A stretch of DNA of 64,000 nucleotides, taken from assembly GCA_050013255.1 (NCBI GenBank), contig JBEKFP010000001.1:1120001-1184000 (forward strand), written 5' to 3'. The notes under the pieces were generated by a model. The model saw only the letters and a list, made by a program, of their open reading frames with translations. It made no database searches and was not told the DNA's origin. Made by a program: the position numbers and the translations under genes. Origin of the DNA: Candidatus Bathyarchaeia archaeon. GTDB lineage: Archaea > Thermoproteota > Bathyarchaeia > 40CM-2-53-6. Positions 12,371-37,300 of this stretch are shown here, piece after piece (the first letter of the stretch is position 1; each line of letters opens with the position of its first letter).

Positions 12371-12501
12371 GCGGCCGTAGTCTAGCCTGGTCTAGGACGG
12401 GAACAGCAACGGAAGTTTGCTGACGCAAGCCTGCCACGCTTCTGATCGCCCCTTAGTAAGGGCGAGAAGACGCCCGGGTTCAAATCCCGGCGGCCGCACC
12501 A
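12371..12501 (+). tRNA. tRNA-Gly(GCC) with two introns: 12403-12428 (29/30) and 12445-12471 (45/46)
   Basis: GCGGCCG acceptor; spliced anticodon arm GGAGC-CTGCCAC-GCTTC; BHB with CTTC/GAAG central helix; CCA encoded. Confidence 0.92.
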
Positions 12502-12712
12502 CAACCCTCGCACACAGACTAAAACGGCCTGGATCCGTTCTTGTCGTTAGGGGAAGTATCACATAACGACCCCTTTACTACAAGGCTTCCGCGCGCCATA
12601 ATTTTGCGCGCAAGCTGGCGAACTATGCGCAATTCTCCGTGCGACCCTCGCACTTCTAGGTATGCATGTGATTTGCGCGCGGTCCCTTGCGCTAATCCTT
12701 CGCGGATGCCAA

Positions 12713-12752
12713 GTTCAAATCCGGTCTCCCGTAACACTAAGAGCACGCACAA
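12713..12752 (+). repeat. Degenerate tRNA-3'-end plus CACAC-arm site (site H)
   Basis: GTTCAAAT-CCGGT-CTCCCGT-AACA-CTA-AGAGCACGCACAA; same register as sites A and G2. Confidence 0.6.
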
Positions 12753-31490: not shown

Positions 31491-31613
31491 GGGCTCGTAG
31501 CTCAGTCTGGATAGTGCTTGCAGGTTGAGCATCTAAAGCACAGGCCCTCTAAACGCTTTGTAAAAAGCGGGGGACGCCTGGGGTCCGGGGTTCGAATCCC
31601 CGCGGGCCCGCCA
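31491..31613 (+). tRNA. tRNA-Arg(TCT) with two introns: 31515-31536 (22/23) and 31553-31575 (38/39)
   Basis: BHB motifs GGAT/ATCT and CTCT/GGGG; spliced arm CAGGC-CCTCTAA-GCCTG; TTCGAAT T-loop; GCCA end. Confidence 0.9.
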
Positions 31614-31714
31614 CACCATCGGTTCCAGACCAACGTCTGGCAAATACCGGAAAAGCCGTTTCTAAGATTAACGTCAATTACGGATGAAAGCGCGCGTGCA
31701 CCGTAATTACAGGA

Positions 31715-31754
31715 GTTCAATTCTGATTGCCCGCACCATTAGACCCACACACAC
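31715..31754 (+). repeat. Site A (tRNA-end type, forward)
   Basis: GTTCAATT-CTGAT-TGCCCGC-ACCA-TTA-GACCCACACACAC. Confidence 0.9.
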
Positions 31755-31810
31755 TGTAATAGATTTGTGTAAATCTATCCCACTTAGTCTTCTTCTGGTG
31801 GAATTGCGCG

Positions 31811-32665
31811 ATGGAACGCCATCCCGACAATACCGCGTTTCGTGCCGCAATATTGCGCGCTGTCCACCAGCTCATCGATGAAGAACCAAAGATTCTCAAC
31901 GACCCTATCGTGCTTCGACTTCTCGACGCACCGACCCTTGACTATGTTCGCTTGAACCCGGATAAGTTCCGGACAGCTAGGATGAACGCGTTACGCTCGC
32001 ATGTAGTAGTGCGCAGCCGGTACACGGAGGACCGCTTGGCCGACGCGGTAGAGAATGGTGTTCAGCAATACCTGATATTGGGCGCTGGCCTCGACACGTT
32101 CCCATATCGACAACCTCATTGGGCGAGAGTATTGCGGATTTTCGAAGTAGATCAATCAACGAGCCAGTGTTCGAAGCGCGAACGGTTGGCCATGGCTGGG
32201 ATTGAGGTTCCGTCGAATGTCGAGCTAATCGCTTGTGATTTCGAGACCATTTCTCTCCGTGATTGTTTGCGCAGAAGCAGCTTCGATTTTGGGAAACCCG
32301 CGTTTCTTTCATGGCTCGGTGTGACGATGTATCTAAGCACGGACGCGATTGATGCAGTATTCAGGTTTGCAAGTTCGCTGCCAAAATCGAGTGAGATTGT
32401 CTTCACGTTTGCATCTCCGGCGTCTACAGTGAAGGAAATCGGACGTGAACCCTTGCTTGCCGCATTCACGGCATTCGCTGCAGCACACGGAGAACCATGG
32501 CGTACCTTTTTCGAGCCAGACGACTTGGCCCACAAATTGCAAGAGTTAGGTTTTTCGACCGTATCATTTCTTTCGGCTTCGGACGCTGATACACTATATT
32601 TCCGAGGTCGTCACGACGGTCTCAAGATACGGCAAAGAGTCGGAATTGTAACCGCTACGGTCTAA
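31811..32665 (+). CDS. SAM-dependent methyltransferase (leucine carboxyl methyltransferase-like)
   Basis: TA..AA..RA.H, R.RY.ED, ILGAGLDT, FEVD and WLGV.MYL. Confidence 0.9.
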   Translation: MERHPDNTAFRAAILRAVHQLIDEEPKILNDPIVLRLLDAPTLDYVRLNPDKFRTARMNALRSHVVVRSRYTEDRLADAVENGVQQYLILGAGLDTFPYRQPHWARVLRIFEVDQSTSQCSKRERLAMAGIEVPSNVELIACDFETISLRDCLRRSSFDFGKPAFLSWLGVTMYLSTDAIDAVFRFASSLPKSSEIVFTFASPASTVKEIGREPLLAAFTAFAAAHGEPWRTFFEPDDLAHKLQELGFSTVSFLSASDADTLYFRGRHDGLKIRQRVGIVTATV

Positions 32666-32683
32666 ACCTATCCACTCTCAGGA

Positions 32684-32766
32684 TGCGTGTGGCTCTAGCG
32701 GTGCGGACGACCAGAATTGAACCGTCGTTTTAGTGCGTGTGTGCGTACCACTAGACCCGCACGCAC
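32684..32766. repeat. Composite site B: reverse tRNA-end type (32684-32727) plus forward symmetric type (32735-32766)
   Basis: Reverse complement of B1 matches site A at 32/40; B2 is GCGTGTGTGCGTA-CCACTA-GACCCGCACGCAC. Confidence 0.85.
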
Positions 32767-32924
32767 AAATTTCTGGCAATTTGGTTCAGGGCTGATGCTT
32801 TATCGAGCTAAGGTCTCTTCTCAACCGGTTTAGTAATACCGGAGACTTCCGGGTCTATACAAAATAGAATCTATGAAGAATTAACGTATAATGATTCGGC
32901 GTGTTCCTAGCCGAACGATGAGCG

Positions 32925-33176
32925 ATGGGTTTCGATCCCACAACCGTAATGAACTTCGTCCTAACTATCATAATATTCGTCTTGGGCGTTGCGCTGTATG
33001 GCAGGAAGAAGAACGTCATGACTCTCTACATCGGCATAGCTTTCGGCCTTTTCGCTATCTCTCACCTGGCAACCTTGCTTGACCTTGCTGCCACTCTAAC
33101 AGTTCCGCTCATAGCAGTCCGGGCAATTGCGTACATTGTAGTCATCATTGCATTGCTCACGTTTTGGAAGAAGTGA
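32925..33176 (+). CDS. Small three-TM membrane protein
   Basis: Hydrophobic 83-aa ORF with FGLFAISH. Confidence 0.75.
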   Translation: MGFDPTTVMNFVLTIIIFVLGVALYGRKKNVMTLYIGIAFGLFAISHLATLLDLAATLTVPLIAVRAIAYIVVIIALLTFWKK

Positions 33177-33193
33177 AACTGGAAAGACTCTCG

Positions 33194-33267
33194 CTTTAGT
33201 GGTTCACCCACACAAAACGGTACGAACAACGATTCAAGTTACGTGGCTCGCACCATTAAACCGACAC
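33194..33267. repeat. Composite site C: degenerate reverse symmetric type (33194-33213) plus forward tRNA-end type (33231-33267)
   Basis: CTTTAGTGGTTCACCCACAC ... GATTCAAGT-TACGT-GGCTCGC-ACCA-TTA-AACCGACAC. Confidence 0.7.
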
Positions 33268-33331
33268 CTATGAAAAGTCTGTAGACTATGCTTTCGTCTC
33301 CGCGGATGGTCTTCTGCGTGGCGTTCAAGTG

Positions 33332-33363
33332 GTGTGTGTGCGCACCAGTAGACCCACACACAC
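33332..33363 (+). repeat. Site D (symmetric consensus site)
   Basis: GTGTGTGTGCGCA-CCAGTA-GACCCACACACAC. Confidence 0.92.
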
Positions 33364-33476
33364 AAACCGGCGTCGTTCATGTAATTTTGTGTGTATACAA
33401 ATTCCAAATTCCAACAGAACCGTAAAGTAAATTTGTGTGCGATCGTGATGCACTTTCGGAGTTGTGTGTTCGAGCA

Positions 33477-34115
33477 ATGGGGAATGAAGTACTGGATGCC
33501 ATTATGCAGCGACGCAGTATCTATCAGTTCAAGCCTGAGGCAGTCCCTACTGAGAAGATTACTTCCATTTTGGAGGCGGGTCGTTGGGCTCCGTCATATG
33601 CGAATAGTCAGCCATGGGAATTCATCACCGTAACTGATAGCAAATTGAAGCAGGAGGTTGTCGAGATAGCTAAGGAAACTATGGCTGCGCATGCAGGAAT
33701 AGAAGGAGCGCACACAATCATCGCAACATGTGTGGATCCCGAGAAAGATCAATATCACTTCATTGAAGACGGTGCTGTAGCAACACAGAACATGGCTCTG
33801 GCAGCACATAGCCTGGGGTTAGCGACCTATTGGGTCGGGATATTTAGTCTTATGAACGATAGGAAATCAGTCGAGCATAGAATCAAGGAGGTTCTGAACA
33901 TACCTGAAAAAATCCGCGTGATTTCTTTGTTGCCCATAGGTGTGCCTGCGTATAGTGTAGAGAAGCAAAGAAAGCGGTTGGAGGAGATTTGCCACGTTGA
34001 CAAGTATGGCAGCAGACAATCAGGTGTGGGAGTAGAGGATCAGGACAAGAAGACCGAGATAGAAGCACAGAGGCATGGCATGAGAGCGCATTTGCCCCGC
34101 GTCGCACCAACTTGA
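33477..34115 (+). CDS. Nitroreductase family protein
   Basis: RRSIY.F, APS..N.QPWEF and NM.LAA.SLGL. Confidence 0.9.
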   Translation: MGNEVLDAIMQRRSIYQFKPEAVPTEKITSILEAGRWAPSYANSQPWEFITVTDSKLKQEVVEIAKETMAAHAGIEGAHTIIATCVDPEKDQYHFIEDGAVATQNMALAAHSLGLATYWVGIFSLMNDRKSVEHRIKEVLNIPEKIRVISLLPIGVPAYSVEKQRKRLEEICHVDKYGSRQSGVGVEDQDKKTEIEAQRHGMRAHLPRVAPT

Positions 34116-34137
34116 TTGATTGGATCATGAGCCAACG

Positions 34138-34163
34138 TCAGGAGTGGCGGGCACACACACAAA
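34138..34163 (-). repeat. Site E (degenerate reverse symmetric type)
   Basis: AGTGGCGGGCACACACAC resembles the reverse consensus ANTGGTGCGCACACACAC. Confidence 0.6.
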
Positions 34164-34778
34164 TCAGCGTTTTCGCGCTACAACGGAAAATACGTGCCAA
34201 TGCTTCCTTCGTTCATGAAGTGCTGGCCTGTCATCTTTCTCCTGTTCGAGAAAGAATTCGATCTCAAATGGACGCAGTAGTGCCTTAACTTGCTTAGCGG
34301 TATGAAATGTCCCATTTGAACTGCGAGCCCAATCATCGTGAACGCCGAAGAAATGGCCTGAAAGCCTTCCTCCAGTACGAATCGAGGTTACGATCTTTCG
34401 CCAGAAAGAATGGAACCGTTTCGGTGAGCAAAACGGTAGGCTGTAACTTGCATTTACAAGATCACATCTGGGTAAGGATGATCTCTCGAATGAAGTCACA
34501 CGGGTTCTTAGTTGCTCTCTATGCGTTGGGGATACGTTAGATCGGATCCATCTAATCGCTCCAGCCTCACTGTCTACAGCCAGCACTTTCCAGCCTCGTC
34601 GCAGCAACTCTGACGTATCCCGACCACCTCCACATCCCAAATCAATCGCAAAACGCATCTTCTTTCGTGACGGTTCAGCGTCAAACGAAGAAAGTGCTTT
34701 TTGCAGGGTTTCGTAAGGAGGACGCTTTGAAGTCGCTTTGTAATAATCAAGCCAACGTGGTTCTCTGCGTTTGGACAT
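34164..34778 (-). CDS. Class I SAM-dependent methyltransferase (TehB-like)
   Basis: AIDLGCGGGRD, SLPFC and KHWHVFSVVARK; start trimmed to MSKRR. Confidence 0.88.
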   Translation of the reverse strand: MSKRREPRWLDYYKATSKRPPYETLQKALSSFDAEPSRKKMRFAIDLGCGGGRDTSELLRRGWKVLAVDSEAGAIRWIRSNVSPTHREQLRTRVTSFERSSLPRCDLVNASYSLPFCSPKRFHSFWRKIVTSIRTGGRLSGHFFGVHDDWARSSNGTFHTAKQVKALLRPFEIEFFLEQEKDDRPALHERRKHWHVFSVVARKR

Positions 34779-34966
34779 AGAAGCAAAGTACAGCGGTTCT
34801 CGCTGATAACTATCGCCTAGATCCTCAGCTCTACAGTTGTAGAAGATACTTCCACTAACAGGTGGGGATCGTAAGCTGACTCTCGGTAGTAGTCGTAACG
34901 ACACTAGTCAACGACGCCTCCCATCCCCTATTTCATCGGTTCTTCTCCTTTCGGAAATTAGACAGC

Positions 34967-35191
34967 GTGCTTAAAACGCAACACGCTGACGCAATGATTA
35001 TGGTTCTAACCAGTTACGAGTGGGTTGCCGTTCTCATAATCATCGTGGTTATTGCTCTGGCGTATTTGTTCTGGCGCTCCTTTTCGCGCAGAATGGAAGG
35101 TACACAAAGACCACAGACGACCACTGGTGCAGGATGGAACAGTCGCATACGGAGTAATCAGACGCAAGACATCAAATCGAAAATCAGCTGA
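34967..35191 (+). CDS. Small single-TM protein
   Basis: One TM followed by a basic tail. Confidence 0.4.
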   Translation: MLKTQHADAMIMVLTSYEWVAVLIIIVVIALAYLFWRSFSRRMEGTQRPQTTTGAGWNSRIRSNQTQDIKSKIS

Positions 35192-35271
35192 CACATAGAT
35201 GCAAAGTTGACGACTGATAGCAGCTTTCACGGCAACCTGAAACAATGATTCACCTGTTTATGCGATTCTAG

Positions 35272-35583
35272 TTGGCCCAAGTACTTTATACCAACCAGCC
35301 CAATGAGGCTGTGATTGTGATGACGACAGGTTTTCATGAGTTCGACAACAGAATCCATGACTTGGCTGAACGGGAAAATGAGTGTGACGGCCTGTTCGAA
35401 GAAATTAAGAATGGCAACGGCGACAAATCACTGCGCTATCTTGCACTGAGAGATTCCTGCAAAGAGTTGAGAAACAAAATTTTCAGGAGCGCTAGGTCAG
35501 CGGGACTAACGCGGGAAAGAATCAAGACGGAGATCAAGGAAGCAAGAAACCAGACGACCGCCACTAACGCGAAACACACTTAG
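35272..35583 (+). CDS. Hypothetical helical protein
   Basis: 103-aa ORF with protein-like composition; start may be at MTTG. Confidence 0.5.
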   Translation: MAQVLYTNQPNEAVIVMTTGFHEFDNRIHDLAERENECDGLFEEIKNGNGDKSLRYLALRDSCKELRNKIFRSARSAGLTRERIKTEIKEARNQTTATNAKHT

Positions 35584-35668
35584 GAAGAATCGATAGAATC
35601 ACCCAGATTTTTTGCGGAACTGGTTCAAGAGCTGAAATAGGCCCCCGGTCGTCAGTCGGTCACTTCAT

Positions 35669-35700
35669 GTGTGTGTGCGCACGACCAGACGCACACAAAC
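35669..35700 (+). repeat. Site F (symmetric type, forward)
   Basis: GTGTGTGTGCGCA-CGACCA-GACGCACACAAAC. Confidence 0.85.
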
Positions 35701-35741
35701 TTTCTGTCAGTCGAACCAACTACGGCATACACGCGATAATA

Positions 35742-36185
35742 TCATTCGACGGTGAAGAGTTCGTGGTCAGGCATTCGATGAAGGGCAAGTGCGATTTCTT
35801 GAACCTCGCGTTGAGGCGAACTTGCGGAGACTCGAGAGAGTAGGGCGGCGGTTTTCTCGGTGGGGCCAATTAGGATGACGCGGTTGCCCTTTCGAAATCT
35901 TACTTTGATGCGTTGAGACTCTTTTACTATGATATTTCCCTTGCCTAAAGTGCAGCCACTGGATACCTGAATACCATCTAGCATGCAGGATTCCGGTGGC
36001 GATTTCCTGGTCCAAACTGTCGCAGATAACTCATGAAGTCGCTTAGGCTTCAACCTTTGAATGGCTATCACGCCCATCCGAAGACCAAATACTAGGTACG
36101 GACCTAGGTGACCATGAAAATCCACGCCCTCCTTCAGCAGACGCTGGCGGCCTGAGGCTCGTTTCTTTGTCACGGTGGTGCCCAC
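35742..36185 (-). CDS. FmdE/FwdE family protein
   Basis: FHGHLGP...G.RMG; C..DGIQ..SGCT.GKGN. Confidence 0.9.
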   Translation of the reverse strand: MGTTVTKKRASGRQRLLKEGVDFHGHLGPYLVFGLRMGVIAIQRLKPKRLHELSATVWTRKSPPESCMLDGIQVSSGCTLGKGNIIVKESQRIKVRFRKGNRVILIGPTEKTAALLSRVSASSPQREVQEIALALHRMPDHELFTVE

Positions 36186-36661
36186 TTGCGCAAGAGAAGA
36201 TCCCCAAGATGAAAACGCCTAGTGAGAATATCAACAACAGCAGCGCAAATCACATTCTCAACAGTCAAGAGAGCCAGAATAGTCTGCACAGCCACAGCTG
36301 GAACATGAAGAACTAATGTATCAACGAGATAAATCCACGGAGCCTGAATCAAGACCCACGCAACCAAACCTGCCAATACGGGTCGGAGCTTGCGGGAAAA
36401 GACCGCAATGAACAACCCCAAGAGCCCGTTTCCGACCACGATCGTCGGGTCTGACCTAATCATAGCCACATATGACCCTCCAACTAAGCCCGTGATGAGT
36501 CCGGATAGAGGACCACCCGCAACTCCAGCCAACATTATGCCTGTTTGAAAAAAGTGGATTCCCGTTCCGAACAGGAATGGTACCATTAAAAGACTAAGCA
36601 CAACTGTCACCGCACTAATCCCAGCCGTGAACGCCACAAGCCTGCTGTTCATCGATTGCAA
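36170..36661 (-). CDS. ECF transporter S-component-like membrane protein
   Basis: Multi-TM with G...GP..G.I.G..GG pattern. Confidence 0.75.
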   Translation of the reverse strand: MQSMNSRLVAFTAGISAVTVVLSLLMVPFLFGTGIHFFQTGIMLAGVAGGPLSGLITGLVGGSYVAMIRSDPTIVVGNGLLGLFIAVFSRKLRPVLAGLVAWVLIQAPWIYLVDTLVLHVPAVAVQTILALLTVENVICAAVVDILTRRFHLGDLLLRKWAPP

Positions 36662-36662
36662 A

Positions 36663-36690
36663 GTATTACCGTTTCACCGAATCGTAATAA
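36663..36690. promoter_or_regulatory. Putative NikR operator
   Basis: GTATTA-N16-TAATAA inverted repeat between divergent nikR and ECF-S genes; same N16 spacing as the E. coli NikR operator. Confidence 0.6.
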
Positions 36691-36739
36691 TGATATTAAA
36701 AAGTACTGACCAATTCCAAGATGTTGGAGATAACCCGCC

Positions 36740-37147
36740 TTGGTTAGGGTAGAAAGGATTAGTTTCTCAACGCCGCCGGCACTACTAGAGCAATTTGACG
36801 ATTCCCTCAGAACACTCGGGTACAAGGATCGGTCGACGGCCCTGCAGATCGCAATGAGGAACTTCATCACAGAATACTCTTGGAGAAAGGAAGCAGGAAC
36901 ACCCGGAGCAGGAACGATCTTGCTGACTTACAACCATGAATCACATGGTCTTCAAGAAGCCTTGACGGACATCCAACATCAATTCCGCGACATCGTGAAC
37001 TCAACTACTCACATTCATCTTGACGAAACTCGGTGTCTGGAGATAATATCCGTCAAGGGGAGAATGGAGCGCATTCAAGCATTGGCAAAGAACATCATGA
37101 AGACACGTGGGGTAACGCAGCTCAGGCTATCAACCGTTGCTGTCTAG
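36740..37147 (+). CDS. nikR: Nickel-responsive regulator NikR
   Basis: RISFS RHH, GY.DRS, YNH, QH and HIHL...CLE. Confidence 0.92.
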   Translation: MVRVERISFSTPPALLEQFDDSLRTLGYKDRSTALQIAMRNFITEYSWRKEAGTPGAGTILLTYNHESHGLQEALTDIQHQFRDIVNSTTHIHLDETRCLEIISVKGRMERIQALAKNIMKTRGVTQLRLSTVAV

Positions 37148-37154
37148 AGAGTAA

Positions 37155-37300
37155 GTGTGCGGTACTATTAATGCAGGGAGGCAAATTTGAACCGTCGTCG
37201 GTAGAGTAATTTTCTGTGTGTGTGGGTCTAATGGTGCGGGCAACGTAATTTGAACCGTCGTCGTTCGTCGTTAGAAAGTGTGTGTGCGCAACAATAGACG
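37155..37300. repeat. Site cluster G: two reverse tRNA-end sites (37155-37200, 37216-37260) plus a truncated forward symmetric site (37278-37300)
   Basis: AATTTGAACCGTCGTCG occurs twice; G2 reverse complement is GACGGTTCAAAT-TACGT-TGCCCGC-ACCA-TTA-GACCCACACACAC. Confidence 0.9.

Follow-up and report, generated by a model that had tools for sequence, protein, structure and literature searches.

Sites resembling tRNA 3' ends in a Bathyarchaeia gene island are probably casposase landing pads in stacks of Cas1-made cassettes

Results

A stack of repeats lies at the edge of a gene island

The window, by which we mean the whole 64-kb stretch of DNA analysed, is C1:1120001-1184000 of a 2.46-Mb MAG in three contigs (100% complete, 8.6% contaminated). 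The host is a Bathyarchaeia archaeon from peat, and the stretch is present in many peat and wetland metagenomes. The segment of interest, 37155-37300, lies at the right-hand end of an island of 5.7 kb (about 31614-37300) flanked by an intron-containing tRNA, 3' of the leucyl-tRNA synthetase gene, and by a TMEM175-like gene. In two relatives (G004 and G014) these two flanking genes adjoin each other and the island is absent. Since ARAGORN found no tRNAs in the window when run without introns, and mis-named several when run with them, tRNA ends were taken from stem-pairing scans instead.

The repeats, here and elsewhere in the genome, share a general layout. A 14-bp core, CGCACCA followed by seven variable bases (N7), is always present. 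To its left lies either a leader bearing a tRNA T-loop motif or a GTGTGTG tip; to its right there is usually a CACACAC tip, replaced in some cases by an unrelated end that likewise joins at +14 or +13. CACACAC and GTGTGTG are the tips of terminal repeats. We refer to a T-loop mimic leader plus its 14-bp core as a pad, or T pad. The features are as follows.

12371-12518, plus: intact tRNA-Gly (GCC, anticodon by reading), a used target with its core at 12495-12508, then a tip
12713-12750, plus: decayed T pad with tip, probably site H of the original prediction
31491-31613, plus: intron-containing tRNA (probably Arg-UCU), left island edge; 3' end CCC-GCCA, with a different end sequence at +14
31715-31754, plus: site A, T-loop mimic, 14-bp core (31732-31745) and tip; leader of the plus-strand array
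31811-32665, plus: cargo, leucine-carboxyl-methyltransferase-like gene; the cassette recurs in G004 and G021 in different surroundings
32684-32764, unstranded: B1 (minus-strand T pad, end-borne) adjoining, back to back, B2 (tip-core-tip, core 32744-32757)
32925-33176, plus: cargo, small membrane protein with a weak DUF5985 match
33208-33270, plus: C2, end-borne T pad (core 33249-33262), then an end type recurring at four genome places
33332-33364, plus: D, tip-core-tip junction (core 33341-33354)
33435-34115, plus: cargo, nitroreductase; DNA 91-93% identical at other loci in G011 and G019
35669-35698, plus: F, tip-core-tip junction (core 35678-35691)
35742-37147, unstranded: cargo, FmdE-like and ECF S-component-like genes (minus) and nikR (plus)
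37155-37161, minus: innermost terminal-repeat tip of the FmdE/ECF-S/NikR cassette, 7 nt past the nikR stop codon
37162-37175, minus: G1 decayed 14-bp duplication core, an orphan whose partner was not found
37176-37192, minus: G1 leader, tRNA T-loop mimic (37185-37192) plus 9 nt
37193-37224, minus: end module 1, tip (37216-37224) and ACGACG-type linker toward the G1 pad
37225-37238, minus: G2 consensus 14-bp core, the target-site duplication unit
37239-37255, minus: G2 leader, T-loop mimic (37248-37255) and a further 9 nt; carries the motif recognised by casposases, in the register known for them
37256-37286, minus: end module 2, outermost tip (37278-37286) and linker toward the G2 pad
37287-37300, plus: G3, distal decayed 14-bp core; host sequence again a few bases downstream

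Read on the minus strand, G2 (37255 to 37216) consists of a T-loop octamer, 5 nt, 7 nt, ACCA, 7 nt and a CACACAC tip, and G1 (37192 to 37155) keeps this register around a decayed core. The original prediction had read these two, together with A, B1, C2 and H, as having the spacing of a tRNA from T-loop to CCA. That reading fits A (31715), B1 (32722, minus), C2 (33232), G1 and G2, although in G1 ATTA replaces ACCA; H is uncertain, the decayed site at 12713 being its only candidate. From the nikR end the order is tip, G1 pad, tip, G2 pad, tip and distal core, so that 37155-37260 is two pads stacked on one cassette end. The distal repeat is the most decayed one in the window's array, and no partner duplication of G1 or G2 was found in the window. 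Contigs from three independent peat/wetland runs cover G1 and G2 without any difference, which rules out an assembly artefact. The FmdE/ECF-S/NikR cargo looks like captured chromosomal DNA, since no tips occur close to the homologues of nikR, the ECF S-component and FmdE in the relatives that were checked.

The tRNA-Gly(GCC) of the window (12371-12501) contains introns; the Rfam scan of the window did not detect it, and ARAGORN named it Gln. An end type starting GGTTCCAGACC occurs at exactly +14 of two CCC-GCCA tRNA ends (window 31614-31731 and G000 C1:855473), each with a T pad about 95 nt downstream and neither with a partner end that we could find. Such an end may represent the founder insertion that seeded the island. 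A founder mini-element, with two tips less than 250 bp apart, was not found in a search that took the relatives' regions around pattern matches, which biases occupancy figures from that set upward.

The sites keep the spacing of a tRNA end but not its structure

A profile of the core and right arm identified 81 sites in the source genome at score 16, against 1 in a Markov-simulated genome, and a fuller site model gave 114 against 2. Five of the 114 are real tRNA ends; the remaining junctions, about 109, fall into some 36 clusters. T-type sites make up 48 of the 109 (44%), in keeping with the earlier estimate that about half of the sites are tRNA-like. The predicted spacing also held: among the 81 cores, whose definition makes no use of the T motif, T-loop and ACCA were 12 nt apart in 30 cases and 13 nt apart in one, with no T-loop at any other distance within 60 nt.

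The sites are nevertheless not degenerate tRNA 3' ends, as had been proposed. The T-stem of the pads forms 1.55 of 4 pairs, compared with 1.66 in shuffled sequence and 4.0 in real tRNAs. At positions -9 to -1 the pads match their own consensus at 5.8 of 9 positions and the CGCACCA-ending tRNAs at 1.4-3.7 of 9, and the invariant tRNA C61 (position -9) is T in 42 of 48. What the pads keep is the T-loop, TGC(C/T) at -4 to -1 and CGCACCA, with the greatest variation at -8 to -5. The sites gave no Rfam match. When pads were aligned with the tRNA set none was close to any genomic tRNA, so that single pads could not be assigned a donor; with no T-stem pairing, no C61 and no donor identity, we reject the view that the sites are tRNA genes or tRNA 3' fragments. 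Judged by these conserved positions, they appear to be a family of functional mimics rather than one-off relics of particular tRNA genes. Ancient descent of the pads from a Gly or Leu tRNA end is plausible, but the copies seen today have spread as a family.

One genuine tRNA is used. The suggestion that CGCACCA-ending tRNAs are followed by the arm was borne out for an intact tRNA-Gly. Of 18 genus genomes, 8 have a tip at its +14 position; of the 37 other tRNA ends in the source genome, none does. None of the remaining five CGCACCA-ending tRNAs in that genome is used, and four of them have G for A in the T-loop.

Two minor observations concern pads and tRNA fragments. A recurring non-end pad with conserved upstream context lies at G000 C1:1323333, 1346569 and 1352968 and at L029:15655-15715. 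In at least two of its copies the pad and a tRNA-Leu-like 3' fragment stand back to back. Upstream of G000 C3:239057, the pad hosting a GC-tipped cas1 element is preceded, at about 40 nt, by a true tRNA-Gly 3' fragment.

Pads are carried in cassette ends and move with them

Of the 48 pads, 24 sit inside a tip at a distance of up to 70 nt and point inward, against a background of 5%, and such end-borne pads are usually preceded by an ACGACG-type linker. Among 301 class genomes, 22 contain this tip-plus-pad module, 20 of the 22 in this order; the reversed control gave 0. End-borne pads are used, since four matched duplications in the source genome begin at them.

Cassettes are mobile between loci and between genomes, and the proposal that tRNA-like sites are remobilised with them was upheld by one case (L073). 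The G021 copy of the window's methyltransferase cassette lies within a matched outer duplication, inside which there is also a pad whose core is an orphan, and the pad therefore moved together with the cassette; the window copy has a pad at the cassette's other end (B1). The end of the nitroreductase cassette lies on the 3' side of the core in the source genome and G011 and on the 5' side in G019, and other cassette ends are likewise found on either side of the asymmetric core. Because the nitroreductase cassette is 93% identical in G011 and the LeuRS protein only 75%, the sequences suggest exchange of the cassette between lineages.

A variant of this cassette (window 33472-34144) that differs by a few percent was seen in four peat/wetland runs on contigs far deeper than those of the source genome, and in three of the four it stops at 34144. 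Contigs of the four runs yielded no usable excision joint; at the read-contig joints the short side was at most 45 letters and inside repeats, and these were ascribed to other copies.

Solo Cas1 genes reside in elements of the same kind

The source genome contains two intact solo Cas1 genes (404 and 407 aa, 59% shared), both outside the window, in which no Cas1 match was found. For the Cas1 tested, the best solved relative is the M. mazei casposase 6OPM (8e-77, residues 4-395, C-terminal region included), and the C-terminal HTH region and lack of CRISPR context are those of the solo Cas1 of casposon family 2. Cas2 was not found in the source genome, and no effector genes lie beside either cas1. 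There are 12 and 8 sites within 15 kb of the two cas1 genes, where the random mean is 1.4.

One cas1 (C1:1333417-1334640) lies inside a 16.3-kb element, C1:1330273-1346555, whose imperfect terminal repeats of about 130 bp start with the CACACAC cassette tip; the cassettes share short tips only. The element is flanked by identical 14-bp sequences, its target is a T-type pad, and besides cas1 it carries, among others, genes for AIPR, Hjc, a DNA methylase, DndB and an HSP90-like ATPase; no polymerase was found in it. The second cas1 and its G004 relative are inside elements with GC-rich tips and identical flanks. The three PolB loci of the genome are all on C2, 46-261 kb from any site and with none within 15 kb. 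None is within the cas1 elements, which makes these casposon derivatives rather than canonical casposons.

The arginine pair with which the M. mazei enzyme reads CGCA is replaced by His-Asn or His-Gln (L001:1330-2544, L002:1123-2346), and the target motif is the same. A casposase match was present in 10 of 22 genomes with the pad module and in 15 of 279 without it, kin among them not being independent. The 12 of 22 module-bearing genomes that lacked a match at E 1e-20 are incomplete MAGs, three of which show weak fragments.

The GC-tipped cas1 elements are G000 C3:228079-239043 (L006) and L029:8497-15655, with junctions that fit either a 13-bp duplication or an end with a 1-nt asymmetry. The former also has HNH and TIR-domain genes and a third GC tip at 237121.

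The core behaves as a target-site duplication

The unit repeated on both sides of an element is 14 bp long and starts 3 nt before ACCA, in place of the 6-bp spacer originally described. Leaving out the commonest core variant, we found the identical rare variant upstream on the same strand at 8 of 23 right-end junctions in the source genome (null 3%, 0 of 2000 shuffles) and on the opposite strand at 0 of 27. In relatives a same-strand rare-variant match occurred at 10 of 59 junctions, against a 2.2% background. In G016 an intact tRNA-Gly bears a single-gene cassette between two cores identical at 13 of 14 positions. The 14-bp core, CGCACCA-N7, thus behaves as a target-site duplication.

The origin of N7 is less direct. 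In 22 pairs of near-identical donor ends N7 was near-identical in 9%, equal to background. At a given orthologous target compared across genomes it was near-identical in 11-17%, against a background of 9%; this test of whether N7 follows the target gave no clear signal, and its origin in the target therefore rests on the paired duplications. Moreover, among 97 innermost cassettes 42 have direct and 55 inverted flanks, and the flanks are near-identical in 10 of the 42 direct cases (background 8.7%). Since most flanks are not near-identical direct pairs, the arrays mostly need extra rearrangement. Nesting and composite movement explain part of the mismatch of flanks and N7, and excision that leaves a single core, as in M. 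mazei, could mix N7 between sites, some of which may be hybrids in that sense.

We considered whether the same casposase and pads operate through a circle closed at an old copy of the duplication (tip-core-tip), so that cores are partly exchanged and many junctions are hybrids. This would rescue part of the attP/attB picture discussed below, with Cas1 as the enzyme, and it has a precedent in M. mazei, where excision in vivo leaves one site and one insertion seemingly brought its own target copy, a result that its authors flag as a possible artefact (PMC10359463). The differences in N7 between genomes at orthologous targets, and a tendency for N7 after tRNA-Gly to be site-like, which is not significant (p = 0.10), point the same way. 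However, N7 is unlinked to the donor end, and the eighteen direct matches of rare variants and the identical flanks of the cas1 elements are what duplication predicts. We therefore regard exchange through such a circle as unlikely.

Identical rare cores in inverted orientation flank three segments: L154:5896-12033, which has identical 50-nt ends too, L050:107-663 and L097:767-2100. A single insertion does not explain segments of this type.

Site-specific exchange at tRNA ends is largely refuted

The original prediction had tRNA ends acting as attB and the symmetric site as attP, recombined conservatively by what would presumably be a tyrosine recombinase. The symmetric junction does resemble an imperfect palindrome, tRNA-Gly is a target, and the genome encodes three tyrosine recombinases. 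A conservative recombinase predicts a donor-linked N7, a fixed orientation and a fixed arm. Against this, N7 does not go with the donor, a given end can flank the asymmetric core on its left or its right, the 'right arm' is swapped for unrelated ends at the same position, and the displaced pieces match no tRNA. Nor was a tyrosine recombinase found linked to the sites or near the arrays: the three have 0, 1 and 0 sites within 15 kb, compared with 12 and 8 for cas1, and adjoin tRNAs ending CCC. Reading the symmetric site as an attP is not supported; N7 is instead duplicated on both sides of elements. The recombinase, arm, orientation and N7 tests together largely refute the exchange, and we hold it to be very improbable. 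Less probable still, independent repeats of a REP/BIME-like or regulatory kind, such as RNA-processing signals imitating tRNA ends, mobilised by a different transposase, would account for modular, dispersed, intergenic sites in both orientations, but not for long elements with terminal repeats and duplications or for cargo that travels with the tips, and the sites have no T-stem pairing, hence no tRNA-like fold, while a search of the source MAG found no Y1 HUH transposase, resolvase or IS110.

Discussion

The interpretation that we favour, and consider likely on the strength of sequence comparison, is that the sites are casposase landing pads and the arrays stacks of cassettes made by Cas1. 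A solo family-2 Cas1 integrase would read the tRNA T-loop motif together with CGCA and join two donor tips 14 bp apart, so that CGCACCA-N7 is duplicated. Its source would be the PolB-less 16.3-kb element with CACACAC-starting terminal repeats, elsewhere in the genome. What had appeared as a tRNA end plus arm would then be leader, duplication and donor tip, and the symmetric site would be tip, duplication and tip between two stacked cassettes. The natural target would be tRNA-Gly, the other pads being self-propagating mimics in which the positions read by the enzyme are kept and tRNA structure is lost. About half of the pads would be built 20-55 nt inside cassette ends, facing inward, and a new cassette would insert into the end-borne pad, each cassette thus bringing the next landing site. 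The composite would later move on its outermost tips, taking pad and orphan duplication along. Repeated rounds of this kind would produce stacks like 37155-37300, both orientations, and positions far from tRNA genes. The simplest history of 37155-37300 would be insertion into a pad followed by composite movement on the outermost tips, twice. That Cas1 acts in trans on the cassettes, and that composites move by their outer tips, seems to us reasonably likely.

In vitro, the A. boonei casposase needs TCAAATC at -15 to -9 (PMC6614799) and makes 14-15-bp duplications (PMC6614799, PMC5137440), and that of M. mazei depends on CGCA, on the 4 bp preceding it and on bp 12-17 upstream, giving a 14-bp duplication that starts with CGCA at targets that have C at -2 (PMC6977970). 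The casposase interpretation is supported by the agreement between the conserved pad positions and those that casposases need in vitro. It is also supported by the direct duplications, the solo Cas1 inside such elements and the tRNA-Gly insertion in G016, as well as by the tip-plus-pad module, the movement of the pad in G021 and the absence of the island from G004 and G014. It is weakened by the scarcity of near-identical flanks, the many inverted flanks and an N7 that is not bound to the target; by the loss of the CGCA-reading arginines and the 12 of 22 module genomes without a casposase match; and by the lack of a partner duplication for G1 and G2 in the window.

The closest known systems are the family-2 casposons MetMaz-C1 and MetMaz1FA1A3-C2 (6OPM; PMC4779613, PMC6977970). 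They share with the present sites a 14-bp, CGCA-starting duplication at a tRNA 3' end, a required upstream motif, both orientations, intergenic tRNA-like targets, tandems with one common duplication and a Cas1 with a C-terminal extension. As in that family, we find a cas1 element bounded by terminal inverted repeats, 14-15-bp duplications, and a target that combines the T-loop motif with CGCA or CC at the start of the duplication. Many of the older cassettes here lack a matched pair of duplications. In contrast, there is no PolB within the element or beside either cas1, and the window cassettes do not themselves encode cas1. Where M. mazei has one to few elements, here there are about 109 junctions in some 36 clusters per genome, mostly of about 1-kb cassettes without cas1; the targets sit within element ends, and R191/R192 are not conserved. 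AciBoo-C1 of Aciduliprofundum boonei (PMC5137440, PMC6614799) shares the T-loop motif register, -15 to -9, and a duplication that starts three bases before the discriminator. It differs in being a single autonomous element at a real tRNA-Pro and in having C at position -9, which is mostly T in our pads, and end-borne targets are absent from the published accounts of it that we found.

Tandem casposons (PMC4779613) and tRNA-like intergenic targets (PMC6563490) have already been published, the tandems found comprising two elements only. A literature search that had most subscription papers outside it found no published cas1-less casposon cassette arrays, end-borne targets or Bathyarchaeia casposons. 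Casposon duplications and the tRNA leader have been proposed as the origin of CRISPR repeats and leaders (PMC5137440, PMC6452270). The arrays described here share with those of CRISPR (Cas1-Cas2) a polarised layout of leader, repeat, insert and repeat and the Cas1 chemistry, and the decay of distal CRISPR repeats can be likened to that of the distal repeat in the window. Unlike CRISPR spacers, which are short, the inserts are gene-sized (median about 1 kb) and have their own terminal tips, and no Cas2 partner was found. The inserts also bring new leaders, and arrays therefore nest and branch. Integrons and the islands of tRNA-targeting tyrosine integrases likewise stack single accessory genes at a reusable site or use a tRNA 3' end as target. 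They differ from the present arrays, in which the target is duplicated, orientation is free and no integrase gene lies at the arrays.

Some 36 gene-cassette clusters in one genome thus seem to have been built by casposon chemistry, with a leader freed from the tRNA gene and carried within element ends. Such arrays suggest a route by which casposons gain cargo, and that the polymerase may be dispensable. More tentatively, the arrays could represent a Cas1 gene-capture system that serves the host, in which PolB-less casposases would write whole-gene cassettes into leader-repeat arrays, each cassette end adding a leader, so that the platform extends itself and accessory genes are shuffled among co-occurring Bathyarchaeia. 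If this were true, the arrays would represent an extant transitional form linking casposons, integrons and CRISPR arrays, and not merely the scars of selfish elements. With its hundreds of variants, the natural set of pads is in effect a mutational scan of the casposase target made in vivo, and a compact one-protein integrase with a portable, reusable 31-bp pad is a candidate tool.

Two further observations were made. A 2.4-Mb relative (G017) has fifteen casposase matches, several of them full-length, and is thus well suited to work on the family. At G000 C1:716105-721311 (L010) a T pad is occupied by a 5.2-kb element that has a 13/14 duplication and whose long terminal repeats start GGGGATATT, and ends similar to those of this element occur at C1:254421 and C2:744697.
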